Counted from the first letter of the stretch, positions 26,208 through 57,184 are shown. The stretch: 57,992 bases of DNA from an uncultured bacterium (GCA_905235605.1 CAJOMF010000012.1:1-57992), one strand, 5' to 3'. Numbers and translations are program-made. The notes: generated from the sequence alone by a model not told the origin.

Positions 26208-27329
26208 ATGAGCAAAGAAATAATGAATTACGATGAAGATGTTAAAATCATAAAATCTGCGATTCTCGAATGCCAGCACAAAGTTGTAAGGCAGGCAAAC
26301 GGAGACCAGCTTTCCTTGTATTACGGAATAGGGCGCTATATTTCGTTCAAAACACGTAAAAACGCATGGGGAACAAATGCGATTGATACAATAAGCGACA
26401 AACTCAGGAAACAATTGCCCGGACTGCGAGGTTTTTCTGCGACAAATATGAAGTATATGCGTATTTTTTATGAGACTTGGTGCGAAACTGTAAATCGTCA
26501 GCCGTCGGCTGACGATTTGGAAAACGGAACTTCAGGCGATCTCATCCCGATAAATCTTTTGAATCAAAATTTTATTATTAATCTTGAGGAATTTACAGGC
26601 ATAAGCTTCACCCACCATGTCGAAATTTTTACAAAAGCCAAAACCTTGGAAGAACGTTTGTTCTATATTCATCAGGCATTTTTGCTGCGTTGGGATAAAT
26701 ACACGCTCAGAGATAATTTAAAAGCCGACGTTTTCCATAAACAAAGCAACCTGCCGAGCAATTTTTCTGCAACAATATCAGATTCAAGGCAAAGATTAAA
26801 GGCGATAGAGATGTTTCGCGATGAATATCTTTTGGATTTTGTAAATGTTGAAGAACTTGGTGAGCGTGACAAAGAAGATCTTGACGAAAGAATTGTTGAA
26901 AATTCAATAGTGCATAATTTAAAAAATTTCTTTATGACGTTTGGGCAGGATTTCACATTTATCGGCAATCAATACCGGATAGAATCATTAGGAAAGGAAC
27001 ATTTTATAGATTTGCTTTTTTACAACCGCGAACTCAGCTCTCTTGTAGCAGTCGAGCTGAAAAAAGGTGAATTTAAACCGTCCTATCTTGGTCAAATGAA
27101 TATTTATTTGCAACTGCTTGACGATTTCGTGAAAAAGCCGAATGAAAATCCGTCAATCGGAATAATTTTATGCCGCAGTGCGGACAAAACTTATGTCGAG
27201 TATGCAGTGCGTGATTATTCAAAGCCAATGGGTGTTGCAACATATAAGACTTTCTCTGATATGCCGGAAAAATTGCGAAAAGCTCTACCGAGTATTAAAG
27301 AAATTGAAAAAGAACTGGAGGCGAAATGA
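26208..27329 (+). CDS. YhcG/DUF1016 PD-(D/E)XK nuclease-domain protein
   Basis: GFSATNMKYMR.FY, Y.LDF, F.FIGNQY, IDLLFYNR, VELKKGEF and ENPSIGIILC motifs. Confidence 0.92.
   Translation: MSKEIMNYDEDVKIIKSAILECQHKVVRQANGDQLSLYYGIGRYISFKTRKNAWGTNAIDTISDKLRKQLPGLRGFSATNMKYMRIFYETWCETVNRQPSADDLENGTSGDLIPINLLNQNFIINLEEFTGISFTHHVEIFTKAKTLEERLFYIHQAFLLRWDKYTLRDNLKADVFHKQSNLPSNFSATISDSRQRLKAIEMFRDEYLLDFVNVEELGERDKEDLDERIVENSIVHNLKNFFMTFGQDFTFIGNQYRIESLGKEHFIDLLFYNRELSSLVAVELKKGEFKPSYLGQMNIYLQLLDDFVKKPNENPSIGIILCRSADKTYVEYAVRDYSKPMGVATYKTFSDMPEKLRKALPSIKEIEKELEAK
26492..26518. repeat. Perfect intragenic palindrome, 13-bp arms
   Basis: AAATCGTCAGCCG-T-CGGCTGACGATTT, encoding NRQPSADD. Confidence 0.95.
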
Positions 27330-28444
27330 AACTCCTCTTCATAAATTCAGTCTGCGGCATCGGCAGCACCGGTCGCATCTGCACTGACTTGGCGCAGGAA
27401 TATGAAGCACAGGGGCATGAAGTGAAAATCGCTTACGGCCGCAACGGTTATGTTCCTGAAAAGTTCAGGAAATATGCTGTCCGCATAGGCACTGATTTTG
27501 ATGTTAAGGTTCACGGAGTTATCTCTCGTCTTTTCGATGCGCACGGTCTCGGCTCGAAATCGGCGACAAAAAAATTCCTCGAATGGGCTGAAGAATACAA
27601 ACCTGATCTGCTTTGGCTGCACAACATTCACGGATATTATATCAACTATGAACTTCTGTTTGAGTGGATAAAAAAACATCCTGAAATGGAAGTAAAATGG
27701 ACGCTCCATGACTGCTGGACATTCACCGGTCACTGCTCCCACTTCACTTTTGCAGGATGCGGCAAATGGAAAACCCGGTGTGAAAACTGTCCGCAGGAAA
27801 AGTCTTATCCAACAAGTTTCTTTCTTGACCGCTCGAAAGAGAATTTTGACAGAAAAAAACAGGCATTCACCGGTGCCAAAAACATGACTTTGATAACTCC
27901 GTCAAAGTGGCTTGCGGACTTGGTGAAGCAGAGCTTTTTGAAGGAATATCCCGTTGAAGTGCGCTACAACACAATCGACACAAATATTTTTAAGCCGACT
28001 CCAAGTGATTTCCGTGAAAGATACGGATTGCAGAACAAAAAAATCGTGCTCGGTGTCGCTGGTGTGTGGAATGATAGAAAGGGTTTGAACGATTTTCTGT
28101 GGCTCTCTGAAAAACTGGATGATTCTTACCAGATCGTTCTTGTCGGTTTGTCTCAGAAACAACTTGATACTCTGCCGAAAAACATAATCGGCATAAGACG
28201 GACAAATAGCCCCAAAGAACTTGCTGAAATTTACACTGCCGCAGATGTTTTTGCGAACCCGACTTATGAAGATAATTATCCCACAACAAATCTTGAGGCA
28301 CAGGCTTGCGGAACACCGACAATAACTTATAGAACAGGCGGCAGCCCTGAAAGTGTGCCGACAGAAAATGTTGCGGAATATGGAAACAAAGAGCATGTGC
28401 TTGAGAAAATTAAGGTGGTCTTAGAAAAAAATAATGGAAAATAA
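27326..28444 (+). CDS. GT4 glycosyltransferase (WcaC-like)
   Basis: GSTGRI, LHNIHG, WTLHDCW.FTGHC and EDNYPTTNLEA motifs. Confidence 0.9.
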   Translation: MKLLFINSVCGIGSTGRICTDLAQEYEAQGHEVKIAYGRNGYVPEKFRKYAVRIGTDFDVKVHGVISRLFDAHGLGSKSATKKFLEWAEEYKPDLLWLHNIHGYYINYELLFEWIKKHPEMEVKWTLHDCWTFTGHCSHFTFAGCGKWKTRCENCPQEKSYPTSFFLDRSKENFDRKKQAFTGAKNMTLITPSKWLADLVKQSFLKEYPVEVRYNTIDTNIFKPTPSDFRERYGLQNKKIVLGVAGVWNDRKGLNDFLWLSEKLDDSYQIVLVGLSQKQLDTLPKNIIGIRRTNSPKELAEIYTAADVFANPTYEDNYPTTNLEAQACGTPTITYRTGGSPESVPTENVAEYGNKEHVLEKIKVVLEKNNGK

Positions 28445-29834
28445 AGGCATCCTCTCATCCAAAAAACTCATTGTTTTTATCGCAATTATTGTTCTGTTGA
28501 TTGCCATCCTGCCTGGTCAGATCACTAATACAGTTCCCTTGGAAATATCGCTTCTCTTTTTTGTTATCGCGATGTTCAGTGTTATCGGAATAATTCGTGA
28601 ACTTGATTATGCTGCAGTAACTTTGAACATGATTCACTGGATTTTTATGCTGATTTTCTTTTTTATTGCACCGCTTATACAGACTTCTTTCGGATTCTCA
28701 GCATGGGGATTTAACTCCATGGATAACGATAATGTTACCAAAAGTTGTCTGGCAATTATTTTATGGATTGTTGTCTACTCTTTAAGCGGCATTCTTATTG
28801 GAAAAAAAATTCATCTGACAGGGGGCGAGCAGAGAGAAAAAATATCATCCGGCTGGCTTTATATTTTCACATTTCTCAGCCTTGTTTGCGGAATCACGAT
28901 TGTTGCAAGATATGGTTTTTTTAATCTGTTTTCGCGTGCTGATTTGAAAGCTGGAGAGGATGCTTTTGAGATGTCAAAAGCTGTCGGATTGATTTGGGCA
29001 AAGTGTTCAAGAGCAACGATAGTTTTCACTGAAGTGTTGCTGGTTATGACACTTATAAAAAAAGAAATTAATGTGAGCAAGCTTTTGACTATTAATACTA
29101 TTGTTTTAATACTTTCGTGTTTTCCTTTTGCTTTATCTAGAAACGAAGCCGGTATTATTTATCTTGGACTTTTTGTGGTATTTTTCTATCGTGATTTAGA
29201 AAAATTCAGACAGAAACCTTGGTATATTTTCTGCTTTTTGGGAGCGACACTTGTAGTTTTCCCCGTTTTGAATGTTTTTAGAAAAATGAGTCTGTATGAT
29301 AAAAATCTTTTTTCTATAATTTATAGTATGTTTACTAATTTGCCAATGGAATATCTGTCAGCAAATTATGACGCTTTTTCAATGATTGAGGGTGTTAGAA
29401 ATTATACCGAAATTGCTGATTTTACGTATGGTTATCAGCTTTTGGGTGCAATCTTTTTCTTTGTTCCAAGAAGCATCTGGGGAAGCAAACCAATTGGTTC
29501 CGGAGCTATGATATCACAATTTCAAGGTCAGCAGTTTTCAAATATTTCATGTCCGCTTATTGGAGAAGGTTATATCAATTTTGGGATTTTCGGAGTAGTT
29601 TTGTTTGCATTTGTTTTCGGTGTTCTGAATACTGTTTTTGACAGAAAATATTGGGAGAATGCTACAAGTCAGAATTTTAGTTTTATAAAAATTATTTATC
29701 CTTTTCTTCCCCCCTGTTTTTTCTTCATGCTGCGAGGAGATTTGATGTCGAGTTTGGCATATACATTGGCGTATGTGTTTATATTTTGGTTTTTGTTTAA
29801 AATAAGCAAATGGCATGTTAGGTTAAAACAATAA
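28434..29834 (+). CDS. wzy: Wzy O-antigen/polysaccharide polymerase
   Basis: AT-rich multi-TM protein with FFVPRSIW..KP, GEGYINFG and FFMLRGDL motifs. Confidence 0.8.
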   Translation: MENKGILSSKKLIVFIAIIVLLIAILPGQITNTVPLEISLLFFVIAMFSVIGIIRELDYAAVTLNMIHWIFMLIFFFIAPLIQTSFGFSAWGFNSMDNDNVTKSCLAIILWIVVYSLSGILIGKKIHLTGGEQREKISSGWLYIFTFLSLVCGITIVARYGFFNLFSRADLKAGEDAFEMSKAVGLIWAKCSRATIVFTEVLLVMTLIKKEINVSKLLTINTIVLILSCFPFALSRNEAGIIYLGLFVVFFYRDLEKFRQKPWYIFCFLGATLVVFPVLNVFRKMSLYDKNLFSIIYSMFTNLPMEYLSANYDAFSMIEGVRNYTEIADFTYGYQLLGAIFFFVPRSIWGSKPIGSGAMISQFQGQQFSNISCPLIGEGYINFGIFGVVLFAFVFGVLNTVFDRKYWENATSQNFSFIKIIYPFLPPCFFFMLRGDLMSSLAYTLAYVFIFWFLFKISKWHVRLKQ

Positions 29835-29856
29835 AAGCTGGTGAGGTGGACGACTT

Positions 29857-30696
29857 ATGGATAATCTTAAACAGATTCAGCAATGTTTGTTAACCATGTT
29901 AAAAGCGTTTCACAGTTATTGTGTTGAGCATAATATCAGATATTACGCTTTAGGCGGGACATTGCTTGGAGCATTGAGACACAAGGGATTTATCCCTTGG
30001 GATGACGATATTGATCTCGGAATTCCACGTGAAGATTATAACTCGTTGATAACATTATTGAATAATCAAAAAATTGATGACAGATATATTTTGGAAACTC
30101 CACTTTCGAATGATCCGAATTACTGCTCTCCTTATTGCAAACTCTATGACACGCAGACAACCTTGATAGAAAATGTAAAAAACAAATTGGTTCGCGGAGT
30201 TTATCTGGACATCTTTCCCCTTGATGGACTGGGAAATTCCAAAGAAGAAGCGAGGAGTAATTACAAGGTAATTCAGCACAAATTAAATCTTTTGGCTTTA
30301 AGGCAAATCAAGCTTAAAAAGGGGAGAAGTTTTTATAAAAATGCATTGCTGTTTTTTGCTCAGGCAATTCCCAATTTTATAATTTCTGAAAAAAAGTTGT
30401 CACAAGAAATCGATGAAATTTGTCAAAAAGTGCCATATAAAACAGCTGCTTGGGGTGGTAATTTGGTGGGAGCTTGGGGACTCAAAGAAATTGTGCCTCT
30501 TTCTGAATTTTCTGAACCAACTTTATATGATTTTGAAGATACGAAGATATTTGGACTGGAACAGGCAGAAGATTATCTGAAAAATATATATGGCGACTGG
30601 AGAAAGTTGCCGCCAGAGGAAAAAAGGGTTTCTCACCATGGTTATTATCTGGATTTAACAACTCCGTATGCGAAATATTCAGACAAGGAGGGATAA
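29857..30696 (+). CDS. licD: LicD-family phosphotransferase
   Basis: GGTLLGALRHKGFIPWDDDIDL, LDIFPLD and YL..IYGDW.KLPP motifs. Confidence 0.93.
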   Translation: MDNLKQIQQCLLTMLKAFHSYCVEHNIRYYALGGTLLGALRHKGFIPWDDDIDLGIPREDYNSLITLLNNQKIDDRYILETPLSNDPNYCSPYCKLYDTQTTLIENVKNKLVRGVYLDIFPLDGLGNSKEEARSNYKVIQHKLNLLALRQIKLKKGRSFYKNALLFFAQAIPNFIISEKKLSQEIDEICQKVPYKTAAWGGNLVGAWGLKEIVPLSEFSEPTLYDFEDTKIFGLEQAEDYLKNIYGDWRKLPPEEKRVSHHGYYLDLTTPYAKYSDKEG

Positions 30697-31413: not shown

Positions 31414-31423
31414 AGAGGTTCTG

Positions 31424-37793: not shown

Positions 37794-37954
37794 TGCCGCT
37801 TTATGCGATAGGTTGCGTTATCGCGATATTTACGGTCTGCACTTTAATCGACATTCTGAGAATAAACTGTCTGGAAAAGCCTTTCTTCAGGTTGCTTCGA
37901 CAGGCTCAGCAACCGGTGCCGCCGCAGGATTAGGGTGTATAGGGTGTTTAGGGA
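37794..37954 (+). pseudogene. Orphan copy of the acyltransferase 3' end and trailer (direct repeat of 56106-56266)
   Basis: ~160 bp near-identical to 56106-56266, including the GGTTGC-ttcgacaggctca-GCAACC hairpin and ttaggg repeats. Confidence 0.92.
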
Positions 37955-37971: not shown

Positions 37972-38043
37972 TCTACCGATTCAAGCCTCCCCTGAAGTAG
38001 GGGAGGTGCCGTAAAACGGCGGAGAGGTCTGAAACGTCTCTAC
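37972..38043. repeat. REP-like hairpin element, inverted relative of 23132-23214
   Basis: CCTCCCCT-gaagt-AGGGGAGG...GAGAGGTC followed by CGTCTCTAC. Confidence 0.7.
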
Positions 38044-38164
38044 GAATCAATGAATGAAAAATTTAAAATTCGGTTAAAATAAAAATCTAAAAATAATTTG
38101 ACTTTCATTTATTCTTTGGATATGTTTCTTTTTCAGTGATCATTTTGAGGAATGGGGGCGGCAT

Positions 38165-38941
38165 ATGAATAAAGACCTGACTGCTTCAAGGATAGATCGG
38201 CAGAATATTTTGAATAATGAAATGGCTATTGAAGAAATTCAAGATAAGTCCGGTATCGTTGGAATTGAGTGGGACGGCAAGACTTATCTGACAAAGGAAG
38301 CTGTTGCATCGTTTTTTGAGGTGGATATCAGAACGATTAGCCGATATATTGAACAGAATAATAATGAGTTGACAGAAAACGGATACGTTGTTCTTCGAGG
38401 AAAGCAATTGAAGAGTTTTCTTGCTACAGCTTCAGAATACTATGCTAAGGACATTAATGTCCCTAGCAAAATTAGTCAGCTGGGTCTTTTTGATTTCAAA
38501 GTATTTCTAAATATGGCGATGCTTTTGTCTGAAAGTGAAAAAGCCAGGGCTTTACGGCAACTTATGCTGGATATTGTTATTGATTTGATAAATCGGCGGA
38601 CTGGCGGAGGTACAAAATATATTAATCAGCGCGATAAAGATTTTATCGGGTCGTATTTGCAGGAAGAAAACTATAGAAGAGAATTTACGGATGCTCTTAA
38701 ACAATGCGTCGCAGAAGATCGTTACAAATACGCACATTTTACAGATATGATTTATGTGAGTATTTTTAAAGAAAAAGCACGTGAATATAAAAAGATACTT
38801 GATCTCAAAGCAAGTGAGAAGGTGAGAGATACTTTCTATAGTGAAATCCTTGATATTATTGCTGCGTATGAAAGCGGATTGGCAGATGCTATAAAGTCAG
38901 ATGAAGAATTGAAATTGGCAATTATTAAAGCAATTCAATAA
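38165..38941 (+). CDS. Putative DNA-binding protein (ORF6N/KilA-N-like N-terminus), possibly C-terminally truncated
   Basis: LTKEAVASFFEVDIRTISRY HTH-like segment, GY.VLRGK.LK.F and AMLL.ESE.A..LR motifs resemble ORF6N-type antirepressor domains. Confidence 0.65.
   Translation: MNKDLTASRIDRQNILNNEMAIEEIQDKSGIVGIEWDGKTYLTKEAVASFFEVDIRTISRYIEQNNNELTENGYVVLRGKQLKSFLATASEYYAKDINVPSKISQLGLFDFKVFLNMAMLLSESEKARALRQLMLDIVIDLINRRTGGGTKYINQRDKDFIGSYLQEENYRREFTDALKQCVAEDRYKYAHFTDMIYVSIFKEKAREYKKILDLKASEKVRDTFYSEILDIIAAYESGLADAIKSDEELKLAIIKAIQ
38443..38468. repeat. Intragenic palindrome, 13-bp arms with 1 mismatch; second copy at 57289
   Basis: TGCTAAGGACATT|AATGTCCCTAGCA, encoding AKDINVPS. Confidence 0.95.
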
Positions 38942-38959: not shown

Positions 38960-38988
38960 TTCGCATTTCCTAAAAAAATCAGTATAAT
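38960..38988 (+). promoter_or_regulatory. Promoter of vioA copy 1
   Basis: TTCGCA-17 bp-TATAAT; TCGCATTTCCTAAAAAAATCAGTATAATG is repeated at 57324-57352. Confidence 0.7.
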
Positions 38989-39014
38989 GGGGCGGTTTTT
39001 TGAAGGAGAGCACC

Positions 39015-40124
39015 ATGACCATAAACGTTACCCGTTCCTCGATGCCGGGTTTTGAAGAGTATTGCGAGGAGATAAAAGAGCTTTGGGAGAGCCGCTGGCT
39101 TACGAATTCAGGGGCAAAGCACCAGAAATTTCAGGCTGAGCTTGAAAAAATGCTGGGAGTGCCGCATGTTGTGCTTTTTACGAACGGGCATCTGGCGCTT
39201 GAAAACATAATTGCGGCGTTCGGATTTCCGAAAGGGGCTGAAGTCATTACGACTCCTTTCACTTTCGCTTCGACGACTCATGCTATCGTGCGGAACGACC
39301 TTACTCCTGTTTTCTGCGATGTGAATCCTGAAAATTACACGATCGATGCTGATAAGATCGAGGCTCTGATAACCGAAAAAACGGTTGCGATAGTGCCTGT
39401 TCATGTTTACGGGAACATGTGCGATGTCGAAAAAATCGCCGGTATCGCGAAAAAGCACAACTTGAAGGTGATTTACGATGCGGCTCACGCTTTCGCGGTG
39501 AAATACAAAGGCATTAGTTCGGCTTGTTTCGGTGATGCTTCGATGTTCAGTTTCCATGCGACCAAGGTTTTCAACACGATCGAAGGGGGCGCGGTCTGTT
39601 TTTCGGACGATCCGCTTGTGGACAAACTTAACAGCATGAAAAATTTCGGCATAACGAGCCCTGAAAGTGTCGGATTTGTCGGCGGGAATGCGAAAATGAG
39701 CGAGTTTCAGGCGGCGATGGGGATTTGCAACCTGCGTCATCTTGAAGGGGAAATCGCAAAACGGAAAGCTGTAGTAGAACGCTACTTTAGTCATCTTGAC
39801 GGAGTGAAAGGGATAAAACTTTGCAAAACTGATAAGGACGTCACGCCGAATTATGCTTATTTCCCGGTCGTTTTCGACGGTTTCGGAGCAACGAGAGACG
39901 AAATCTTCGCAAAACTCGGGGAAAACGGCATTATGGCGAGGAAATATTTCTATCCGCTGACGAATTCGTTCGAGTGTTACCGTGATTTTCCGACTGCCGG
40001 CAGCGAAAAAACGCCGGTCGCCGCATACTTTGCCGACAGGGTGCTGACACTTCCGCTTTATGCAGATCTTGCGTTGGAAGATGTCGATAAAATTTGTGAG
40101 ATAATTTTGAACTGCAGGAGATAA
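39015..40124 (+). CDS. vioA: DegT-family aminotransferase, VioA-like (dTDP-4-amino-4,6-dideoxyglucose)
   Basis: TTPFTFASTTHA, PVHVYG, YDAAHAF, SFHATKVFNTIEGG, NAKMSEFQAAMG and RKYFYP motifs. Confidence 0.85.
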   Translation: MTINVTRSSMPGFEEYCEEIKELWESRWLTNSGAKHQKFQAELEKMLGVPHVVLFTNGHLALENIIAAFGFPKGAEVITTPFTFASTTHAIVRNDLTPVFCDVNPENYTIDADKIEALITEKTVAIVPVHVYGNMCDVEKIAGIAKKHNLKVIYDAAHAFAVKYKGISSACFGDASMFSFHATKVFNTIEGGAVCFSDDPLVDKLNSMKNFGITSPESVGFVGGNAKMSEFQAAMGICNLRHLEGEIAKRKAVVERYFSHLDGVKGIKLCKTDKDVTPNYAYFPVVFDGFGATRDEIFAKLGENGIMARKYFYPLTNSFECYRDFPTAGSEKTPVAAYFADRVLTLPLYADLALEDVDKICEIILNCRR

Positions 40125-40328: not shown

Positions 40329-40997
40329 TTGAAGAAAGAAGATCTGTTTAAAAAGCGTCGCGAACCTCGCAAAAATAGAAGGTATGGCTTTAAAACTCCA
40401 AAGGCGAACTCTTACCTTATCGTGACGGAAGGAAAATGCACAGAACCGAATTATTTCAACGGATTAAAAAAAAGGATTCTAGATAATGTCGGCGGAAATG
40501 TAGAAGTTATAGATATTTCTGGAGAGGGTGCATCGACCCAAAAACTTATAGAGATCACAGATCAGCGTGTTAACCGAGCCAAAATTCCATATCAGAATAT
40601 TTGGGTAGTTTTTGACAAGGATGATTTTAAGGATTTTGATCAGGCGATCAGAGAAGGCGAAGACAGGGGATATAATGTCGCTTGGAGCAATCAGAGCTTT
40701 GAATATTGGATCTATCTGCATTTTGGATACAGCGATGCAGATCTGCATAGAGACCAATGGAATGCCAAGCTTGATGAGCTGTTTAAATCTAAAGGGCTTT
40801 CAAAATCAGGATATAAGAAAAATATCAATGACCTTTATGAGCTGCTGGATTCCTTCGGCGGTGTTCAGAAAGCAATAAACAATGCAAAAAATAGAATGAA
40901 GGAATTTAAATCTAAAAAATCTAAACCATCGGAATATGCTCCAGGAACAACCGTGCATATTCTTGTGGAAGAGTTGCGGGGTTATTTAGAGTATTAG
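40329..40997 (+). CDS. rloB: RloB-family protein
   Basis: IVTEG..TEPNYF, WVVFDKD, SNQSFEYW..LHF and P.T.VH.LVE motifs. Confidence 0.9.
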   Translation: MKKEDLFKKRREPRKNRRYGFKTPKANSYLIVTEGKCTEPNYFNGLKKRILDNVGGNVEVIDISGEGASTQKLIEITDQRVNRAKIPYQNIWVVFDKDDFKDFDQAIREGEDRGYNVAWSNQSFEYWIYLHFGYSDADLHRDQWNAKLDELFKSKGLSKSGYKKNINDLYELLDSFGGVQKAINNAKNRMKEFKSKKSKPSEYAPGTTVHILVEELRGYLEY

Positions 40998-41031
40998 GAG
41001 CGGTGGAAAGAAAACTGGATGAGTGAGGGGG

Positions 41032-43287
41032 ATGAAACTCGTATTTTCTTCGATAAAAAATGGGACAATATTTGAACCTGATTTTCAGAATTTGACTCCT
41101 GATGTGGGAACCATTGAGTTTAAGCATATGAACACGCCAGGCGGTATCGCTGTTGTGTATGCCCCTAATGGTACCGGGAAGAGCAGTTTTGCAAAAGTGT
41201 TAGAAAAAGAAACAGCGAATGATTTGTCATTCGTAGCAACAGACGATATTGGAGCAACTATCACATTTAATGCATTCCACATTATCCAAGACCAGATAAA
41301 TCGAAATGTTATTCCAGGAAAAGAAACTGATTACTTGATTGGGCAACAAATCAGAAGAGAATATGAACTGCGAAACAGAATAAATTCCGCTTTTGATACC
41401 GTCTATAAAAAGTTGCCTGGGAAATACAAGAGTGATTTTAAAGTTTCCAAGGTCGAAGACTATCTTCTTACACAGATAGGGACACTTCAAAATCTACCTT
41501 ATCCTACAGCGTTTAAATACATGAGGTGCATCATCAATATTCATTCACACGGAACAAATATCGATCAGGCAGAGTTTCTCTCTTTTATTCGAAATGACAA
41601 TAACAGGCCAAACTTGACTGAGCTGGACACAGACAAGAAAACATGGGTTATTGCTGATTGCAGTGGAAAATCCAAAATAGTAAAGCGAATTATCGGGCTT
41701 GATTGTAACAAGATTGTAGCAAATCAGGGGACAGCACAGATTGAAAGGCATGATGATGCAATTGGTATTTTAGAAAAATATCACTCTTTGGACTCCTGCA
41801 TAGTTTGTGATAATCATGATTTTAATGGAGACGACCTGTTAACCAGAAAGAAAGAAAATCGCAAACGTATTTACGATGGTTTGGATCAAAACACAAAAGA
41901 ATTGCTGGATAAGGTCATAAAGGACAGTAGCCTTGTTTCTTCTGACCCATTTGATATTAAACGTATTGTGAGCGAGTTTGTCTCTGGCGGAGAGGCAATA
42001 GAACTGCATGAGCTTCAAAGTAATCTGAAGATGTATGTTCATGCCATAGGCGATGAAATGATAAATGTTCTATTTCATTGCTTTGACGACACTTCTCTTT
42101 TCCAGGATTATGATGAGTATACAAAGCTTGTGTCTACACAGCCACAATTGGATTCAGAGGAACTTCTTTTCATAGAGGATGTTATCAACGAGAATATCGG
42201 TAAAGACATTACCATTGAGCGGGATCCTGACAGCAAAAACTATAAGCTGAAACTGGGCGATAAGGATCTGTTGGGAATTGACCGCAGCTCTATGGAGCTT
42301 AGCTCTGGAGAACAGAACTTCATATCACTAGCTTTCGAACTGTTGCTGGCACGGCACTCTAATAAGGAATATGTTGTACTAGATGATCCGATCTCAAGCT
42401 TTGATTCAGTGTATAAGAACAAGATAGCTTTTTGCATCATCAAATTCCTTGATAAAAAGAAGCAAATCGTACTTACTCACAATACCGATTTGATTCGACT
42501 CTTAAATGTGCAGCTTAGCAATTGTTTCAACCTATACATTCTCAACAATGTAGAAAATGGACGTAATGGTTTTATTCCTGTCAATGCGCAAGAAAAAGCC
42601 ATGCTGATAAACTTACATGAATTGGTGAAGTTCTTCCAGAATAAATGCAAACAACTTGCTCCGGCTATTAGAAATCGTAGACAATTCCTTATGGCTATGA
42701 TTCCCTTCATGCGTGGATATGCTCATGTGAGCTTGGATCTAGATGATGATTATGGAACGCTTTCAGATATCATGCATGGATATGGAAGCGGAAAAGTAGA
42801 TGTTGTTCCTATCTATAAGAAACTTTTCGGGTATGACTTCGGTGGAACAGAAAAAATCTCTGTTGATGATATATTGAATATAGATTGCACTGCGCTTGAT
42901 ATTCTTGATGGGACTAAATTCCCTTTGCTATCTGATACGCTCAAGCAGACTCTTATTTATTATCATCTTCGGATGAAAGTGGAAAAAGTGCTAGTTGATG
43001 CATTTAGAATCGATGCTCATGATATGGATACGCTTAATCAGATTATTCAGAGAGCGTTTCGAAGAGAACTTGACAATGATGAGCGGAACAGAAATCTGCG
43101 TGTGTTTTTTACAAGTCGGAAAACTCTTCTGAATGAGTTTAATCACTTTGAAGGCAACATGAATATCTTTCAGCCGGCTATAGATATTACTCAGGCTGCA
43201 CTTCAAAAGGAAATTGGTGATATAAAAAATAAGCTCGTCGAAGTTCAAACATTTGCTAATGGTACACAATGGCAGATCGCAAAATAA
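41032..43287 (+). CDS. ABC/SMC-type ATPase with zinc hook (AAA_13/RloC-like)
   Basis: YAPNGTGKSS Walker A, central CIVC, LSSGEQ signature, LDDPISSFD Walker B, LTHN; C-terminal RKTLLNEFNH resembles a HEPN motif. Confidence 0.75.
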   Translation: MKLVFSSIKNGTIFEPDFQNLTPDVGTIEFKHMNTPGGIAVVYAPNGTGKSSFAKVLEKETANDLSFVATDDIGATITFNAFHIIQDQINRNVIPGKETDYLIGQQIRREYELRNRINSAFDTVYKKLPGKYKSDFKVSKVEDYLLTQIGTLQNLPYPTAFKYMRCIINIHSHGTNIDQAEFLSFIRNDNNRPNLTELDTDKKTWVIADCSGKSKIVKRIIGLDCNKIVANQGTAQIERHDDAIGILEKYHSLDSCIVCDNHDFNGDDLLTRKKENRKRIYDGLDQNTKELLDKVIKDSSLVSSDPFDIKRIVSEFVSGGEAIELHELQSNLKMYVHAIGDEMINVLFHCFDDTSLFQDYDEYTKLVSTQPQLDSEELLFIEDVINENIGKDITIERDPDSKNYKLKLGDKDLLGIDRSSMELSSGEQNFISLAFELLLARHSNKEYVVLDDPISSFDSVYKNKIAFCIIKFLDKKKQIVLTHNTDLIRLLNVQLSNCFNLYILNNVENGRNGFIPVNAQEKAMLINLHELVKFFQNKCKQLAPAIRNRRQFLMAMIPFMRGYAHVSLDLDDDYGTLSDIMHGYGSGKVDVVPIYKKLFGYDFGGTEKISVDDILNIDCTALDILDGTKFPLLSDTLKQTLIYYHLRMKVEKVLVDAFRIDAHDMDTLNQIIQRAFRRELDNDERNRNLRVFFTSRKTLLNEFNHFEGNMNIFQPAIDITQAALQKEIGDIKNKLVEVQTFANGTQWQIAK

Positions 43288-43413: not shown

Positions 43414-43749
43414 ATGGGAAAACAGAAAATTGTGAAGGAAGAGAAAAATACGCCTGTATACACTACCGTCGCAACAATTACCAAAATTGAAAAAGACGGT
43501 GTCCGCATCAAGGGCTTTGGCAAATACCTTTATGAGGATTCCAACAAACAACAGTGGAATATTTTGGAAGGTAATGGAGATCCTAAATTGCTGCCAACGG
43601 ATAAACCTCAAATAATTGCTGATGCTTTGATTAAAGATTCTGTTGCTGTGCAGTTGCTTGCCTTGTCAATGTTCCACAAGAAACCACTGAAATTGACGAT
43701 CGAAGAAGAAGACAAAAAATATTCTATTACTGCTGTAGAGGTCGAGTAA
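43414..43749 (+). CDS. Small hypothetical protein coupled to the FRG gene
   Basis: GGGGG RBS-like sequence; TAATG stop/start overlap with the next gene. Confidence 0.65.
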   Translation: MGKQKIVKEEKNTPVYTTVATITKIEKDGVRIKGFGKYLYEDSNKQQWNILEGNGDPKLLPTDKPQIIADALIKDSVAVQLLALSMFHKKPLKLTIEEEDKKYSITAVEVE

Positions 43750-44687
43750 TGGCGGAATACCACGATATTTACTCTGTTGTCGATTACATCGAAGCGATAA
43801 AAAATTTTAAGCGTTACGGTGTTAATGGTTCACGCAGAGAAGATACCCGCCTGTATTATCGTGGTGAGCCGGCTGATTATGGAGAAACAGCTGGAACTCC
43901 TTCAATTGCTCGAGGCGAATGGTTGGAAGGCAACAACGAATCGACTTTGTTCCGGGAATGCGAGCGCCGATTGCCGCGTGAATTTGCCAACTGCAAGACG
44001 ACTTTCGAAAAATTGGTGCTTATGCAGCATTATCAAATCCGCACACGCTTGCTGGATGTGTCATTTGGACCTTTGCAGGCTCTGTTTTTCGCGCTTTATA
44101 TCGATCCAAAGAGCAAACAGGACGATTTTTGCGATAGTATAGTTCTGGTGTATGAAATCCCGGATGAAGCCATTTGTTCGTGGCATTCCGACAAGGTGAG
44201 CGTCATTTCAAACATCGCCGTTTACGCATACGATGATTTGGACATCTGGGATTTACCGTATAATGAAGAATCAACAAAGTTGTTCGATAAAAAGGATTCT
44301 TTTAATGAAAATGAAAAAATACAGCAATTAGTTCATGAAATCAGGGCCGAAAAACCCTATTTCATAAACAGGATCATAAAAAGTCACATGGAATCTATTT
44401 ACTGTGTGCATCCGTTACTGGATAACCCTCGTATCAGGGCGCAACAAGGGGCGCTCCTTCTGTTTGGAATGGATGGCGACAAGCATCACTTGGCGACGCT
44501 GGAATCAAACAAAGGTCCGAAAATCAGCATGGCTAAAATCCGCATTCCGCAAGGAGCCAAAACCCGCATCCGTGAAGAATTGGAACTGCTCAGCCAAACA
44601 GTAGACACTATCTATCCTGACTGGCAGGGCGTTTCCGATTATTTTGAACGTTTCTCCGGTAAAAAAGCAGAAGATTTTTATAAGTGA
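43749..44687 (+). CDS. FRG-domain protein
   Basis: YYRGE, MQHY..RTRLLD.S...L.ALFFA and NPRIRAQQG.FL-like motifs. Confidence 0.9.
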   Translation: MAEYHDIYSVVDYIEAIKNFKRYGVNGSRREDTRLYYRGEPADYGETAGTPSIARGEWLEGNNESTLFRECERRLPREFANCKTTFEKLVLMQHYQIRTRLLDVSFGPLQALFFALYIDPKSKQDDFCDSIVLVYEIPDEAICSWHSDKVSVISNIAVYAYDDLDIWDLPYNEESTKLFDKKDSFNENEKIQQLVHEIRAEKPYFINRIIKSHMESIYCVHPLLDNPRIRAQQGALLLFGMDGDKHHLATLESNKGPKISMAKIRIPQGAKTRIREELELLSQTVDTIYPDWQGVSDYFERFSGKKAEDFYK

Positions 44688-44809
44688 AAAAGAAACGAAC
44701 AGGTGGGTATTGGAAAACTTTTTGGAATTTTAGAATGCCTTGAAAAAATCGAATAATTCAATAAAATCCATATTCGCCTTATCGGCTCTTGTTACATGGA
44801 GGTGTTGAT

Positions 44810-45892
44810 ATGTTGGAAAATATTAAATTCCAAAATTTCAGAGGATTTAAAAGCCTGGATTTGTCCGGTCTTTCGCAAATTACATTGTTGGCCGGAAAGA
44901 ACAGTGCCGGAAAGAGTTCCGTTCTCGAAGGAATTTTTCTTATTATGGCATCTTCTTTACCGGATATTTTTGAAAAATTAAGAAAAATTCGTGGTTTGCC
45001 TGTTCCGCCTGATATAACGAAACTGTGGGAACCACTATTTTATCATTGCGATACATCAAAGCCAATCGAAATATCTGTGAACTATCAGGAAAAACATATA
45101 AATCTCAAATACGAGAGGGATGATGCTTTTTCAACTTTGGACACGAATCAAAATATTCTGAATACTTTTATTACATTTGGTAGTCCTGCAGCATCAGATT
45201 ACACCCTCCGTTATACTTTTTCTGTCGATGAAGTTACTCAAAACGGGCATATATTTCAGAATCCTGCGATAGGTCCTTACGGGGTGCTCGCGATGAATAA
45301 AAATAATAAAGTAAATCTTGCGGCTATTCCAAATACGCAAATTGTTAAATTTGTATCTGTTGAGAGAATGGATGATCTAGAACTTGCTGAATGGTTGGGA
45401 AAGCTTGAATTAAATAGAGAACGCAAACTGATAATTGAGGCTCTCCAAATAATTGATCCTGATATTATTGACATCAAGGCCATAGTTCAACAGAGATATA
45501 CTCAACTTTACCTTATGACAAAAAGCTCATCTCTTCCTTTAAAACTGGCCGGAGACGGTATGTGCAAGCTTCTATATTTTGTGTTAAGTGTTTTAAGCAA
45601 CCCGAATTCGATCGTCTTGATAGATGAGATAGAAAATGGTTTCCATTATTCCATACAAGAGTCCCTGTGGGAAAAACTCGCAGAAGCTGCAAAAAGGAGC
45701 AATACACAAATTATTGCTACAACTCATAGTTATGAATGTATACAAAACGCGGTGGCAGGGATTGCCAAAGCTGGAATGTCTGAAAACTTTAGTCTTCACC
45801 GGATTGACAAAATAGGTGAAGAGAGCCGTGCAACCCGCTATTCAGGAGAACTTGTAAAATATGCAGTAGATTCCTTGATGGAGGTGCGGTAA
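44810..45892 (+). CDS. AAA_15/AAA_21 ABC-type ATPase
   Basis: NFRGF, GKNSAGKSS, GDG signature, LIDEIENGFH and TTHSYE motifs. Confidence 0.88.
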   Translation: MLENIKFQNFRGFKSLDLSGLSQITLLAGKNSAGKSSVLEGIFLIMASSLPDIFEKLRKIRGLPVPPDITKLWEPLFYHCDTSKPIEISVNYQEKHINLKYERDDAFSTLDTNQNILNTFITFGSPAASDYTLRYTFSVDEVTQNGHIFQNPAIGPYGVLAMNKNNKVNLAAIPNTQIVKFVSVERMDDLELAEWLGKLELNRERKLIIEALQIIDPDIIDIKAIVQQRYTQLYLMTKSSSLPLKLAGDGMCKLLYFVLSVLSNPNSIVLIDEIENGFHYSIQESLWEKLAEAAKRSNTQIIATTHSYECIQNAVAGIAKAGMSENFSLHRIDKIGEESRATRYSGELVKYAVDSLMEVR

Positions 45893-46557
45893 TGTCAGGC
45901 ACAGAAAACCGGTCTATTAAAAAAGGGATGCAGCACTTAATACTGTGTGAAGGAAAAGACGAGTGTTTGTTTATGATTTACTATCTAAACAGCCAAGCTT
46001 TGTCTTATAATAAGCAATACTCTGAAACTGTTCAGGTCGAAGATTTCGGTGGGAACGAAGATCTTTGCAATGCCCTGAAATCGTGGTCAAATGATCCTAA
46101 CTTCCTTGAACTGAAGTCGCTTGTTGTTGTTCGTGATGCAGAAAAGAATGCTCAGGCTGCTGTTGACAGTATCATAAATGCTTTTAAAAATGCCGATTTG
46201 CCGGTTCCTCCACGTTCTAATGAATTTAAAACGGGAAATGGCTTGAAGACAGGTTTTTTCCTGTTTCCAAAATGTTCTTCCGAACCTGTCAATGGAACTC
46301 TTGAAGATTTATGTTTTTCTATTTTAATGGAAAAAGAAGCTCCTATAAGTGAAATTGAAACTTTTCTTTCAGACTTGCAAACGCATAAAAACAGAACTTT
46401 TCCCCGTCCTTTTAAGACAAAACTGCACACATATTTTTCTATTACTGATAAATTCGTGTCGTTAAAGATCGGAGAAGCTGCTAAAGCAGGTGCCTTTGAT
46501 TGGAGTAGTCCTGAACTTGAGCCGATAAGGATTTTCTTGGACGAAATGTTGCAGTAG
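45892..46557 (+). CDS. DUF3226-like TOPRIM-fold partner of the ATPase
   Basis: LCEGKDE, GG, VRDAE and GTLEDLC motifs; TAATG overlap with the ATPase gene. Confidence 0.78.
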   Translation: MSGTENRSIKKGMQHLILCEGKDECLFMIYYLNSQALSYNKQYSETVQVEDFGGNEDLCNALKSWSNDPNFLELKSLVVVRDAEKNAQAAVDSIINAFKNADLPVPPRSNEFKTGNGLKTGFFLFPKCSSEPVNGTLEDLCFSILMEKEAPISEIETFLSDLQTHKNRTFPRPFKTKLHTYFSITDKFVSLKIGEAAKAGAFDWSSPELEPIRIFLDEMLQ

Positions 46558-53707: not shown

Positions 53708-53723
53708 ATGCGGGAGTAATAAA

Positions 53724-54233
53724 ATGAATGAAATTACAACGCCTATCTCCGATGAAGTTATAAAAAAACTCAATGTCGGTGATGTAATCTATATCTCCGG
53801 ATATATTATTTGCGGCAGGGACGCAGTTCTTCCGAAGGTGCTGAAAATGATTGAAGACGGCACTGTCGGTCAGCTTGGTGTCGATCTGAAAGGTCAGGTG
53901 ATTTTTCACACGGCTTTCAGCACTGCCGGTCTTGGCCCCACATCAAGCAACAAAGTTGAAATCGAGGGCAGTATAGAACCTCTTTCAGCTGCAGGAGTGA
54001 AGATCCATATGGGTAAAGGAGCCCTTCATGCCGAAACAATAAAGGCTCTTGACAAGTATAACGCTATATACGCCGTCATAGCGCCTGTCACGGCTCTTCT
54101 TGTGGACAAAACCTCAGAGCATCGTGTGCTTGCTTTCCCTGAGCTCGGTATAGAAGCTTTGCATTTAATCAAAATCGACAAGTATCCTGCGATTGTAGCA
54201 GCAGCACACGGGAGGAGCATATATGATAAGTAA
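53724..54233 (+). CDS. Fe-S hydro-lyase beta subunit (FumA-C/TtdB-like)
   Basis: L.VGD...ISG....RDA, GPTSS and GKG motifs. Confidence 0.85.
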   Translation: MNEITTPISDEVIKKLNVGDVIYISGYIICGRDAVLPKVLKMIEDGTVGQLGVDLKGQVIFHTAFSTAGLGPTSSNKVEIEGSIEPLSAAGVKIHMGKGALHAETIKALDKYNAIYAVIAPVTALLVDKTSEHRVLAFPELGIEALHLIKIDKYPAIVAAAHGRSIYDK

Positions 54234-55083
54234 AAGTTATGACGAAATTATAGAGCGTGTCAGAGATACGCTTGTTCTGGCTGGTTCCACTTTCAGACCT
54301 GATAAAACGGAAGCATTCAAGAGAGCGATTGAAACCGAAAGCAATCCTCAGGCTAAATGGATCCTTGAAACAATGCTGGAAAATGCCGAAGTCGCCGGAA
54401 AAAACCGCAGACCTATCTGTGATGATACGGGAATACCGCATTTCCTTCTTGAAATCGGTGAAGATACACCGATTACCGGAAAAACGCTTGATGCTATAAA
54501 AGAAGGTGTAAAAGCTGGTTTGCGCACACTTCCCGGAAGACCTATGGGTATTATGGGTGACGACAGCCACAGAATAGATCAGTCAGGCGGTTTGAATCCT
54601 GACAGTGCCGGAGTAGAACCTGCTCCTATACTGATAAGAAAATGCAAAGACAATGTTTTGAGACTGCATATTCTGATGTTCGGCGGAGGTCCCGCGATCC
54701 GCGGTAAAACATACCGAATCTTCCATAAACACAACACACAGGTCGTTATGGACGAGATAGTAGGATGGGCAAAAGAATCCGTGTCACAGCTCGGTTGTTC
54801 CCCGTGTACTCTTGCAATCGGTGTAGGCAGAAGTCATTTCGAAGCGTCATCATTGATGCTTCAGGCTCAGGTCGACGGCAATTACGGTGTACAGTCTGAA
54901 ATGGAACAGGAAATCACCAGACGTGTAAACGAAACAAATGTCGGAGCTTTAGGACTCCACGGTGATGTCAGCGTATTGGCGACATTCATGAAAGTAGGAC
55001 CCCAGAGAGCAAGCGGTGTGCGTATAGTATGCCTGAGACCATGCTGCTGTTTCGAACCGAGAATCGCAACGGTTGAATTGTAA
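54223..55083 (+). CDS. Fe-S hydro-lyase alpha subunit (FumA-N/TtdA-like)
   Basis: PICDDTG, GGG, CSP...IG.G, G..GL.G and C-terminal CC motifs. Confidence 0.85.
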   Translation: MISKSYDEIIERVRDTLVLAGSTFRPDKTEAFKRAIETESNPQAKWILETMLENAEVAGKNRRPICDDTGIPHFLLEIGEDTPITGKTLDAIKEGVKAGLRTLPGRPMGIMGDDSHRIDQSGGLNPDSAGVEPAPILIRKCKDNVLRLHILMFGGGPAIRGKTYRIFHKHNTQVVMDEIVGWAKESVSQLGCSPCTLAIGVGRSHFEASSLMLQAQVDGNYGVQSEMEQEITRRVNETNVGALGLHGDVSVLATFMKVGPQRASGVRIVCLRPCCCFEPRIATVEL

Positions 55084-55150
55084 GTTTTCTGCGTCTTTGA
55101 GACATGTCCGATTGCATATCCGCCGATAAGGTTTTTTTAGGAGACCCTCA

Positions 55151-56245
55151 ATGTCAAATACACCAAGTTTAAACGAAGTCACCCCGAAACAACGTGACTC
55201 TAATCTTGAGTTGATGCGCATAATCGCAATGCTTCTCATAGTCGCTCACCATTATGTTGTCAATTCAGGTCTGACTCTTCCAGAAGGGCCGATTTTTGCC
55301 GATCCGATGTCAAAACGCTCGCTGTTCCTGCTTGTTTTCGGCGCATGGGGAAAAATCGGGATAAACTGCTTTATGATGATAACCGGATATTTCATGTGCA
55401 AATCGAATATAACAGTGAAGAAATTCGCGAAGCTGTTCTTGGAAATCTTATTTTATAATATTGTGATATATCTCATTTTTCTGCTTAGCGGATACGCACC
55501 TTTTGCTTGGACTTCTTGCATAAAAGCATTGATTCCTATTACAAGTATCAACCAGAATTTTACCTCATGCTTTATTGTGTTTTTCCTCTTTATCCCTTTT
55601 CTCAACAAACTTGTGCAGAACCTGAATGAAAAACAGCATTTGGCATTGATCGGGCTCTGTTCTTTCACTTACATTCTTTTCGGGACACTGCATCGTGTCT
55701 CGATGAACTATGTTTCGTGGTTCATAGTGCTTTATTTTATATCTTCATACATCAGGCTTTATCCGAAAAAATGGTTCTCAAACAATAAAATCTGCGGTAC
55801 CTTGCTGTTTCTGTCGCTTGCAGCTGGTATTGCAAGCATAGTCGGCTGTGCATGGGTCGGAACAAAGATAAACAGATTCTCTCCTTTCTTTTTTGTCAGC
55901 GATTCCAATACTTTTCTTGCTGTGGCAATAGGAGTCAGCGCGTTCATGTTTTTTAAAAACCTCCGTATTCCTTACAGCAGATTCATCAACACTGTCGCCG
56001 CTTCGACATTCGGGGTGCTTTTGATACATGCATCCGGTGATACGATGAGACAGTGGCTTTGGAAGGATGTCGTCGATTGCGTTGGTCATTATGGCGACAA
56101 ATATCTGCCGCTTTATGCGATAGGTTGCGTTCTCGCGATATTTACGGTCTGCACTTTAATCGACATTCTGAGAATAAACTGTCTGGAAAAGCCCTTCTTC
56201 AGGTTGCTTCGACAGGCTCAGCAACCTGCGCCGCAGCAGAATTAG
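55151..56245 (+). CDS. Acyltransferase-3 family membrane O-acyltransferase
   Basis: RDSNLELMRIIAM..IV.HH, F..ITGYF and TFGV.LIH motifs; ~10 TM helices. Confidence 0.9.
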   Translation: MSNTPSLNEVTPKQRDSNLELMRIIAMLLIVAHHYVVNSGLTLPEGPIFADPMSKRSLFLLVFGAWGKIGINCFMMITGYFMCKSNITVKKFAKLFLEILFYNIVIYLIFLLSGYAPFAWTSCIKALIPITSINQNFTSCFIVFFLFIPFLNKLVQNLNEKQHLALIGLCSFTYILFGTLHRVSMNYVSWFIVLYFISSYIRLYPKKWFSNNKICGTLLFLSLAAGIASIVGCAWVGTKINRFSPFFFVSDSNTFLAVAIGVSAFMFFKNLRIPYSRFINTVAASTFGVLLIHASGDTMRQWLWKDVVDCVGHYGDKYLPLYAIGCVLAIFTVCTLIDILRINCLEKPFFRLLRQAQQPAPQQN

Positions 56246-56269
56246 GGAGTTTAGGGATTTTAGGGAAAA

Positions 56270-57184
56270 TCACAGATTCCGCATGATTTCGGGAATCCAG
56301 GATGGATCCAAGATTTCGAAAGCGAAGCACTGTTTGGCGAGATCTTTGAGCGACGCTCCGATGTGGTAAAGAATTTTGTTGTCGATAATCAAAAAGCGGT
56401 CGTGGATTTTTTCCGTGTGTTTTAGCTCAAGTATCGGATATTGTTCGTTAAATTTTTGAACGTCGAGAGGTGTTATTTTTGTTTTTGGATAGGTGTAGAT
56501 TATGACTTTTACACCGCTTTTCTTCTTGGCGAAGCGCTCCAGAACCGTAAGATCGACATAATTGTCGATTAGAACAATTTCTTTTTCAGCCTCGGCGATA
56601 AATGACTCGAATTTTGCGTAGGCATCGAAAATCTGCCCTTGGAAAAAGAGCCCCTGTTTGTCTTCGATTTTGTATCTGTCCATTTTGTCGAAAAGTTCAT
56701 CGATTTTTTTGCCGTGTTCCAATAAGTGAATCTCGCTGGTTGTCTGCCGTTTTTCCATAAAGTCGAGTCTTTGAAAAATTTGGGAGTTTGTCTGAACAAA
56801 CCGGCGCAAAGCGACAAAGGCTTCTATAATCATTATACTTGTCAGCACTGCTGTATCGCTTTTAAGAACGGAAGCCAGCATTGCCACTCCCTGTTCCGTA
56901 AAGGCGTAAGGCAGATATTGGCGGCCGCCCCTGGTTTCTGTTTTTGAGGTCGCAATTTGCGACCTCAAAAATTCAAATTCACTTTCATTGAGTTGAAACA
57001 TGAAATTTGAGGGGAATCTTTCAATATTTCTACGCACTTGTTCATTCAACCTTTTTGTCTCCACCCCGTAAAGTTTTGCCAAGTCTCGGTCGAGCATCAC
57101 CTGCTGCCCTCGAATAACCAAGATTTTACTTTCAATATCTGCTTTTATTTGATTGTCGCTACTTATTACAATTTTATTTGTCAT
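56270..57184 (-). CDS. ORF6N-domain DNA-binding protein with C-terminal PLD-like domain
   Basis: IRGQQVMLDRDLAKLYGVETKRLNEQVRRN.ERFP, PYAFTEQGVAML, LIDNY and HDRFLIID...YH.GASLKD motifs. Confidence 0.92.
   Translation of the reverse strand: MTNKIVISSDNQIKADIESKILVIRGQQVMLDRDLAKLYGVETKRLNEQVRRNIERFPSNFMFQLNESEFEFLRSQIATSKTETRGGRQYLPYAFTEQGVAMLASVLKSDTAVLTSIMIIEAFVALRRFVQTNSQIFQRLDFMEKRQTTSEIHLLEHGKKIDELFDKMDRYKIEDKQGLFFQGQIFDAYAKFESFIAEAEKEIVLIDNYVDLTVLERFAKKKSGVKVIIYTYPKTKITPLDVQKFNEQYPILELKHTEKIHDRFLIIDNKILYHIGASLKDLAKQCFAFEILDPSWIPEIMRNL
56941..56971. repeat. Perfect intragenic palindrome, 15-bp arms
   Basis: TTTTTGAGGTCGCAA-T-TTGCGACCTCAAAAA, encoding FLRSQIATSK on the minus strand. Confidence 0.95.

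Follow-up and report, generated by a model that had tools for sequence, protein, structure and literature searches.

We describe a DNA element that lies inside the coding sequences of phage-defence-associated genes. A 57,992-nucleotide stretch of DNA from an uncultured bacterium (GCA_905235605.1, CAJOMF010000012.1:1-57992; hereafter, the window is this whole stretch) holds a YhcG gene, a PDC-M59A-family gene and an ORF6N gene, each with a long palindrome within its own reading frame. We show that the palindrome is a nucleotide-level element, conserved in position and family-wide in ORF6N (PDC-S05), PDC-M59A, YhcG (DUF1016, PDC-S02) and RhuM. A palindrome of 25–33 bp is kept by selection at a fixed coding position, which corresponds to a permissive loop or linker of the N-terminal module.

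The original prediction, made from the sequence alone, had placed one palindrome in each of the three genes. Direct reading confirmed all three, with 0–1-nt spacers and in frame in all three open reading frames (ORFs) (Table 1). Palindrome 1 encodes VNRQPSADDL (about residues 95–104) in the variable linker of DUF1016_N, palindrome 2 encodes AKDINVPSK, and palindrome 3 encodes FLRSQIATSK in the gappiest and lowest-confidence loop of the ORF6N domain. Palindromes 1 and 3 are the longest perfect palindromes of the window. In a scan limited to one mismatch and a 1-nt spacer at the most, four palindromes had arms of at least 13, where 100 order-2 Markov shuffles led us to expect 0.16; one of the 100 shuffles reached an arm of 15. 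The fourth match is AT-rich, has an A-run before its stem and a T-run after it, and belongs to a different class from the three genic palindromes, being probably a bidirectional intrinsic terminator. Nothing comparable had been noticed in the sugar genes and, indeed, the window scan gave no arms of at least 12 there, nor in the AbiEii, AAA-ATPase, Schlafen, RloB/AAA_13, FRG and AAA_15/DUF3226 genes.

In the ORF6N family the palindrome is widespread. We took DNA from 68 related loci, with the protein alignment as anchor, and almost all have an odd-centred palindrome at the homologous place; among the 76 ORF6N matches listed, eight are without a palindrome of at least 17 nt at that site (L068, L037, L033, L046, L067, L071, L069 and L041). 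The arms are wholly different between clades and complementarity is kept (..GAGGTCGCAA/TTGCGACCTC.., ..GGAAATCACAA/TTGTGATTTCC.., ..TGGTATCGCAA/ATGCGATACCA.. and ..TCAAGGTCAAAA/TTTTGACCTTGA..). The encoded peptides vary too, from the FLRSQIATSK of the window to NWKSQFVISNS, MVSQNAIPS and SRSKFLTLN. Paired cells make up 85.3%, versus 31–43% with slid partners; double-sided changes occur at 13 of 16 pairs, and compensatory cells number 194, versus 62 ± 7 in shuffles (0/500). L069 and L067, whose palindromes are elsewhere, were left out of these pair counts. A same-genome paralogue (contig C32) displays one such compensatory change, G:C to A:T, made through a synonymous serine change and an Ala-to-Val replacement.

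The peptide does not account for the symmetry. Of the distinct ORF6N cores of the form GGTC(G/A)CAAWTTG(C/T)GACC, 34 are centred on codon position 1 and 6 on codon position 2, and the two frames give different peptides, ..LRSQIATS.. and ..LVAxCDR... The original prediction had proposed that homologues be compared for compensatory changes; what we found is symmetry kept while the peptide varies, in ORF6N the reading frame too, and not a peptide kept with symmetry lost. Moreover, in comparisons with nine relatives that are at least 75% identical, 5 of the 91 conserved codons within the palindrome differ synonymously (5.5%), versus 120 of 331 in the flanks (36%; flanks of 39 codons). The palindrome is the gappiest stretch of the protein alignment, flanked by two highly conserved motifs. 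In an AlphaFold (AF2) model of the ORF6N protein (mean predicted local distance difference test score, pLDDT, 75), palindrome 3 is predicted to encode a helix end and a loop, at pLDDT 54–64 compared with about 90 alongside. The unit can also be multiplied: a paralogue on contig C10 has four tandem units, of which three are perfect palindromes and one is imperfect. In a phage collection, this ORF6N subfamily occurs in 5 of 50,697 records.

The other two families of the window behave in the same way. PDC-M59A, represented by 80 loci from many phyla, has the pattern TTTTG-N6-GACAT(2 nt)ATGTC-N6-CAAAA, in which the N6 segments covary; three loci lack it (L184, L186 and L190). Here paired cells reach 86.9%, versus 33–48% with slid partners, and compensatory cells 101, versus 35 ± 4 in shuffles. 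The YhcG set, assembled from host-genome paralogues and loci from 39 genomes of the phylum, follows AATT-N7-9-(0-5 nt)-N7-9-AATT in the linker that precedes the conserved C-terminal half. Here 81.6% of cells are Watson–Crick pairs, versus 20–30% when slid, and positions 3–8 from the centre are paired almost always, with two to four pair types each.

The alignments behind these pair counts (A1, A3 and A4) are centred on the palindrome and hence defined by the feature. An unselected test took the single best palindrome of each whole gene and compared its position with the homologous anchor (within 45 nt). The best palindrome lay at the anchor in 55 of 62 ORF6N genes, 76 of 81 PDC-M59A genes and, with an anchor that falls in an indel-rich linker, 30 of 41 YhcG genes. 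Its mean score was 12.2, 11.1 and 9.5, respectively, versus 6.3–6.5 in synonymous-codon shuffles, the control that the original prediction had named, and it equalled or beat at least 98% of the synonymous shuffles in 47 ORF6N, 49 PDC-M59A and 16 YhcG genes.

The element is also prominent in the host genome as a whole. A scan for perfect palindromes with arms of at least 11 and a spacer of at most 5 found 41, versus a shuffle mean of 8.3 (range 5–12, six shuffles). About 23 of the 41 fall in the four families: 15 in ORF6N homologues, 5 in YhcG homologues (contig C80 adds one or two in YhcG fragments), 1 in a weak relative of PDC-M59A and 1 (C14:38616) at the start of a RhuM-type match. In a less refined test, which took the longest ORF and used no protein anchor, the RhuM (PF13310) genes of relatives had their best palindrome at about residues 65–93 in 23 of 30 loci; one example is AACTATTCGAAAATTTCGAATAGTT, encoding ATIRKFRIV. 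Ordinary palindromes are among the 41 as well, such as a 28-bp perfect palindrome upstream of relB-yoeB on contig C80. Each palindrome pattern is single-copy in the host genome, save for one paralogue copy and one twin (see below); with no many-copy intergenic set in the genome, we ruled out a dispersed repeat of the repetitive extragenic palindrome or miniature inverted-repeat transposable element type.

Escherichia coli has the element too. The yhcG gene of strain K-12 contains three tandem palindromes in the homologous linker, at nt 303–329, 338–372 and 378–410; the last has perfect 15-bp arms, CAGAC-N3-GTCTG is common to all three, and RefSeq annotates nothing at these palindromes. Of 5426 complete E. 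coli genomes, 3943 contain the stretch. In one allele that was sampled there is a lone, perfect unit, whereas the first unit of K-12 has a mismatch. The shared nucleotide-level design that the original prediction had proposed for three genes is thus well supported, and it reaches four families, many phyla and E. coli K-12.

We suggest that the palindrome is the cognate DNA site of the DNA-binding protein encoded by the same gene, for autoregulation or self-immunity, and give this proposal somewhat less than an even chance. The proposal draws on an analogy with BstA and aba and on three copies in upstream intergenic DNA, as well as on mismatches that show no RNA wobble signature and on a predicted ORF6N protein architecture like that of DNA binders.

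BstA is a KilA-N-like abortive-infection protein, and aba is its cognate DNA self-immunity element (Owen et al. 2021, PMC8585504). In that paper's description of the element, aba is 63 bp long, spans the start codon (29 bp upstream and 34 bp coding) and relies on terminal direct repeats; it acts as DNA, is variant-specific, prevents self-harm and serves prophages during induction (PMC8585504). Measured against that description, the likeness is that a defence-associated gene has a short DNA element overlapping its own coding sequence. The differences are that the elements here are mid-gene inverted repeats, not start-codon-spanning elements with direct repeats, and that their hosts are chromosomal genes within a polysaccharide locus. 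The PDC-M59A-family protein of the window has a faint match to the PADLOC BstA profile (E 0.0074); the other two proteins have no BstA match.

All three palindromes of the window have the dyad symmetry of an operator for a dimeric regulator. The intergenic upstream position of classical operators is taken only by a twin of palindrome 2 in the window and by copies at L154 and L058. The twin, which had not been seen in the original prediction, sits in the 163 bp of intergenic DNA that separate the divergently oriented ORF6N and DegT genes; the core of palindrome 2 recurs within it at 57292–57311, and the near-identical relative L006 has the same arrangement. L154 has a perfect 32-nt copy 28 nt upstream of its ATG, plus a copy about 275 nt into the gene, and the L058 copy precedes the start by about 90 nt. 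The relB-yoeB palindrome, an ordinary operator of similar form in the same genome, supports reading the genic palindromes as operators. As for the protein, Foldseek likens the ORF6N model to TrmBL2, with a predicted winged-helix DNA binder, a long coiled coil and a PLD-like C-terminal domain that resembles PLD-family nucleases.

How might such a site work? The encoded protein would bind the palindrome of its own gene as a dimer, either as duplex or as an extruded hairpin. Being located inside the ORF, the site would be inseparable from the gene and would move along with it to any landing place, in this case probably a polysaccharide operon in which the gene would have no promoter of its own. 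The palindrome could then be an intragenic operator, a roadblock that throttles the gene's own transcription and might form a loop with an upstream copy. Alternatively, it could be a 'self' signal that marks the protein and titrates it, much as aba DNA neutralises BstA. The autoregulated product would be a potentially harmful DNA-binding effector, and diversification of the arms among paralogues would keep every protein–site pair private.

Several observations weigh against a cognate site. Symmetry and free covariation extend over 13–16 bp per arm, at nearly every position; such full-arm covariation is more typical of an intrastrand stem than of a single helix-turn-helix (HTH) half-site, which makes a DNA hairpin or cruciform a serious alternative. 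Arm class is not coupled to HTH-like residues beyond the rest of the protein (0.46 versus 0.42–0.43), and the spacing of the YhcG half-sites varies by 1 bp (26 or 27 nt). Upstream copies are rare, being present in 1 of 80 PDC-M59A loci; of the 66 ORF6N rows, 3 were flagged, namely one upstream copy and two cases of tandem genes in L052. A roadblock in an operon gene would cut expression of the downstream sugar genes too. The three palindromes had been said to lie at N-terminal DNA-binding domains: the modules are N-terminal, but we know of nothing that establishes DUF1016_N as a DNA binder. Finally, the counts given above overstate independence, because the alignments are palindrome-centred and many of the sequences come from related metagenome-assembled genomes or horizontally spread genes.

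A broader version of the cognate-site proposal is possible, though we regard it as doubtful. On the model of aba, ORF6N, RhuM, PDC-M59A and YhcG/DUF1016 would be guest genes in which each ORF holds a private palindrome or hairpin recognised by its own protein; the site would set the protein's level or silence it towards the carrier replicon, as a generalised aba-like immunity. Site and protein would diversify together under phages able to copy the site, and such pressure would explain why a genome has many paralogues with different arms. A single mutational step could then alter specificity and site alike, as part of the protein is itself encoded by the palindrome.

The first rival to a DNA site is a hairpin in the mRNA: a site where RNase III or RNase E governs processing or stability, a point at which ribosomes pause, or a binding site for translational autoregulation. 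Such a hairpin would tune the guest gene and leave the host operon untouched, and we consider it unlikely. The predicted sense-strand RNA hairpins of palindromes 1–3 are stable (−20.9, −17.0 and −21.1 kcal/mol; z −3.3, −3.0 and −4.8), the central 3–5 nt are exempt from symmetry as a loop would be, and covariation runs along the whole arm. Stability does not decide the matter, because stable folds are predicted for DNA as well (−13.1, −8.1 and −15.7 kcal/mol). The mismatches are more telling. In ORF6N, G.T exceeds A.C (14 versus 5), but 39 of the 58 mismatches are neither, and pairs that switch between G:C and A:T have almost no G.T (in RNA, G.U) intermediates. The bias is moreover inconsistent between families: YhcG has 28 A.C and 12 G.T (40 others), and the commonest PDC-M59A mismatch is a sense-strand A.C in mid-stem (45 of 78). 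Copies of the palindrome stand at intergenic divergent-promoter positions, and the window twin, with two arm mismatches, has kept its sequence and folds no better than shuffles. Rfam 15 gave no matches across the whole window at gathering score. Nor does palindrome 3 look like an intrinsic terminator, since on both strands the stem comes after a T-run and before an A-run; a scan of 56200–57500 called neither a terminator nor a promoter there. The lack of a consistent wobble bias, the non-terminator shape, the absence of an Rfam match and the copies at operator positions lead us to favour palindromes that act as DNA, not as mRNA.

With the same reserve we regard the proposal that the palindrome is structure-forming DNA, a hairpin or cruciform, that is not a sequence-specific site of the gene's own product. 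It might serve recombination or module exchange between paralogues, be the target of a structure-specific nuclease or recombinase, or sense supercoiling or replication stress in infection. Strand-neutral symmetry, full-arm covariation and relaxed centres would fit, as would the stability of the predicted DNA hairpins and the AT-rich centres of ORF6N and RhuM. Several tblastn matches start or stop at the palindrome (L021 72–314, L069 19–88), the number of units is polymorphic in E. coli, and the effector domains are nuclease-like (PD-(D/E)XK and PLD-like). However, the conserved cores GACAT..ATGTC and TC[G/A]C..G[C/T]GA and the outer AATT exceed the needs of pure structure. A role in recombination, one of those suggested in the original prediction, found no support: in a sliding-window scan of PDC-M59A, the distance correlation did not fall at the palindrome (0.69 and 0.64 beside it). 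Insertion sequence (IS)-associated breakpoints in E. coli are not enriched either, given a query that is about 60% palindrome.

Quasi-palindrome correction is a template-switch mutation in which a change is copied from arm to arm in a single event. That the palindromes have no function of their own, being by-products of a conserved peptide or symmetries maintained by such correction, is very improbable: compensatory changes with few intermediates would fit one-step copying, and some peptide motifs are well conserved (DINV in PDC-M59A, for example), but the peptide differs widely under kept symmetry and in two reading frames, synonymous sites are strongly constrained, the palindromes match or beat at least 98% of synonymous shuffles in the 47, 49 and 16 genes counted above, one position persists across phyla and four families, the single-unit E. 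coli allele keeps its unit perfect, and units have multiplied in the C10 ORF6N paralogue and, as three in tandem, in K-12 yhcG.

Sites within coding sequences have precedents. Intragenic operators or roadblocks include lac O2 within lacZ and the PurR site within purB. Like these sites for a dimeric DNA binder, the elements here are palindromic and inside coding sequence, possibly looping with an upstream site, as L154 might; the lac and purB sites differ in that they regulate a gene other than the regulator's own and are single cases, not family-wide and coevolving. Toxin–antitoxin operators share the long perfect palindromes with 0–1-nt spacers, as before relB-yoeB on C80, but are located at promoters and not in coding sequence. 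Replication origins can lie inside initiator genes, as lambda ori does in gene O and the pT181 origin in repC. There a cognate site, hairpin-forming inverted repeat included, is within its own coding sequence, as we propose here; the present palindrome families differ in having no replication role or replicon context. Rickettsia palindromic elements are mobile repeats of about 100–150 bp scattered over unrelated genes. They resemble our palindromes as palindromic DNA that is tolerated in ORFs and adds peptide in permissive loops, and differ in that each palindrome here is genome-unique and takes one homologous position per family.

The DNA-level element in these phage-defence-associated genes is apparently undescribed: in the open-access PMC and bioRxiv literature we found no description of these palindromes. 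PMC7967276 mentions yhcG only as an antisense-RNA neighbour. A survey of inversions reports DUF1016 and RhuM only as enriched beside inversion targets (NAR 2023, PMC9881135). According to a preprint, E. coli B is protected against T7, T5 and T4 by one representative of PDC-S05, with T7 and T5 plating down about 1000-fold, and a PDC-S02 representative is absent from its four positives (bioRxiv 2024.09.26.614923).

A conserved intragenic DNA element is a testable handle on the control, or the self/non-self discrimination, of these genes, and K-12 yhcG is a ready laboratory model. YhcG/DUF1016, ORF6N and RhuM are among the commonest unexplained genes embedded in restriction–modification and defence loci. 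The peptide motifs conserved in these families may reflect a constraint on the DNA, and codon-optimised or recoded constructs in defence screens would destroy the palindrome.

The window is a long polysaccharide-synthesis locus with defence-type genes scattered through it, as judged by a domain scan (Table 1), and PADLOC places all three palindrome hosts in its "phage defence candidate" families (PDC-S02, PDC-S05 and PDC-M59A). A sequence search found no solved structures for the three proteins. The YhcG gene matches Pfam YhcG_C (1.2e-50) and DUF1016_N (1.8e-26) and PADLOC PDC-S02 (2.8e-119), and passes the cut-off for both PF17761 and PF06250 (93.3 and 171.9 bits). The ORF6N gene matches Pfam PF10543 (3e-37; 127.2 bits versus a cut-off of 27.8) and PDC-S05 (1.9e-115). 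The gene at 38165 matches PDC-M59A, a multi-gene candidate (5.4e-83), over profile positions 2–241 of 338 and has no Pfam or NCBIfam match; since its PDC-M59A relatives are 338–339 residues long by family ORF length, this 258-residue copy is 3'-truncated. It had been taken for an ORF6N-like gene with its palindrome in the equivalent position. A weak likeness does exist (hhalign E 0.11, an HTH-like 32 columns) and the proposed layout is plausible, but the gene has no Pfam ORF6N match and, at that E value, positional equivalence is statistically unsupported. The proteins of this gene and of the ORF6N gene both match phrog_2657 and phrog_7755 weakly.

Table 1. Palindromes and annotated genes of the window
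Feature	Position	Strand	Remarks
Palindrome 1	26492-26518		AAATCGTCAGCCG-T-CGGCTGACGATTT; 13/13 pairs, 1-nt centre, perfect
Palindrome 2	38443-38468		TGCTAAGGACATT/AATGTCCCTAGCA; 12/13 pairs, no spacer, mismatch A.C
Palindrome 3	56941-56971		TTTTTGAGGTCGCAA-T-TTGCGACCTCAAAAA; 15/15 pairs, 1-nt centre, perfect
Intergenic twin of palindrome 2	57289-57317		28/29 identical to 38443-38471; 11/13 pairs
AT-rich palindrome	24706-24738		16-bp arms, 1 mismatch; intergenic, 18 nt past the Schlafen/AlbA_2 stop; fourth scan match
YhcG/DUF1016 gene	26208-27329	+	373 aa; PADLOC PDC-S02; Pfam and PADLOC; hosts palindrome 1
PDC-M59A-family gene	38165-38941	+	258 aa, 3'-truncated; PADLOC; hosts palindrome 2
ORF6N-domain gene	56270-57214	-	PADLOC PDC-S05; probable ATG 57184 (304 aa); Pfam and PADLOC; hosts palindrome 3
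AbiEii gene	17947-18849		Pfam domain
AAA-ATPase/PDDEXK_9 gene	21518-23092		Pfam domain
Schlafen AlbA_2 gene	23231-24688		Pfam domain
RloB gene	40329-40997		Pfam domain
AAA_13 gene	41023-43287		Pfam domain; paired with RloB
FRG gene	43749-44687		Pfam domain
AAA_15 gene	44789-45892		Pfam domain
DUF3226 gene	45892-46557		Pfam domain; paired with AAA_15

Other observations concern the palindromes and their relatives. Contigs from public runs (Logan, small shares) end at the edges of palindrome 3 (56939/56972); three contigs ending at one palindrome proved to be an assembly effect with a shared 99-nt overlap, and palindromes of these families break short-read assemblies. Palindrome 2 lies 489 and 490 nt from the conserved blocks that flank its segment, a symmetry that we take for coincidence, as there are no terminal inverted repeats. 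In PDC-M59A, the distance correlation is lower 40–150 nt downstream of the palindrome. Three E. coli genomes with partial matches were sampled, and in two of them (L229 and L231) yhcG is broken next to an IS or transposase sequence at the third palindrome; with few genomes and such a query, we did not count these breakpoints as a hotspot.

Contig C80 (L110) has six long palindromes within about 2.6 kb (6600–9250). The relB-yoeB palindrome is at 6784, that of a YhcG fragment at 8408 and that of a full YhcG gene at 9180, and an unannotated ORF of 148 residues holds a near-copy of the relB-yoeB palindrome (7810) and an ORF6N-type palindrome (7743). Another type of palindrome, GTAGAGACGTTTCCTGAAACGTCTCTAC, occurs at the 5' end of a TonB-dependent receptor ORF on host contig C96 (4402–4429), with a relative on contig C72 (14026–14049); its right half, GAAACGTCTCTAC, recurs in the window at 38024–38046, upstream of the PDC-M59A-family gene.

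The guest genes may have left traces of their arrival in the locus, where defence-type genes interrupt the polysaccharide genes across 13560–56245. The YhcG gene sits between direct repeats of 154 bp (26034–26187 and 27324–27477, 93% identical), which represent the 5' end of the downstream glycosyltransferase gene, its ATG included; a third copy, of 28 nt, follows the AAA-ATPase gene at 23095–23122. These flanks look like homology-mediated (Campbell-type) insertion of a guest gene with target duplication. The other two palindrome genes occupy parallel slots with the same bounding blocks (37794–37954 and 56106–56266, 94%; 38961–39629 and 57324–57992, 85.5%), one containing the PDC-M59A fragment on the plus strand and the other the ORF6N gene on the minus strand. 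This arrangement looks like cassette-like replacement between the 3' end of an acyltransferase gene and a DegT gene. Variants without the acyltransferase gene exist, because public-run contigs skip 55088–56106 and 55173–56087. In the PLD-like domain of the ORF6N gene (56270–56800), the motif HDRFLIID has HxR where HxK is usual, and 29 relatives show little or no variation at its H, R, F and D. Elsewhere in the window, a direct repeat of 264 nt at 70% identity (8123–8385 and 8573–8835) links the ORFs at 8077–8457 and 8524–9678, which have no Pfam match and are probably tandem paralogues.

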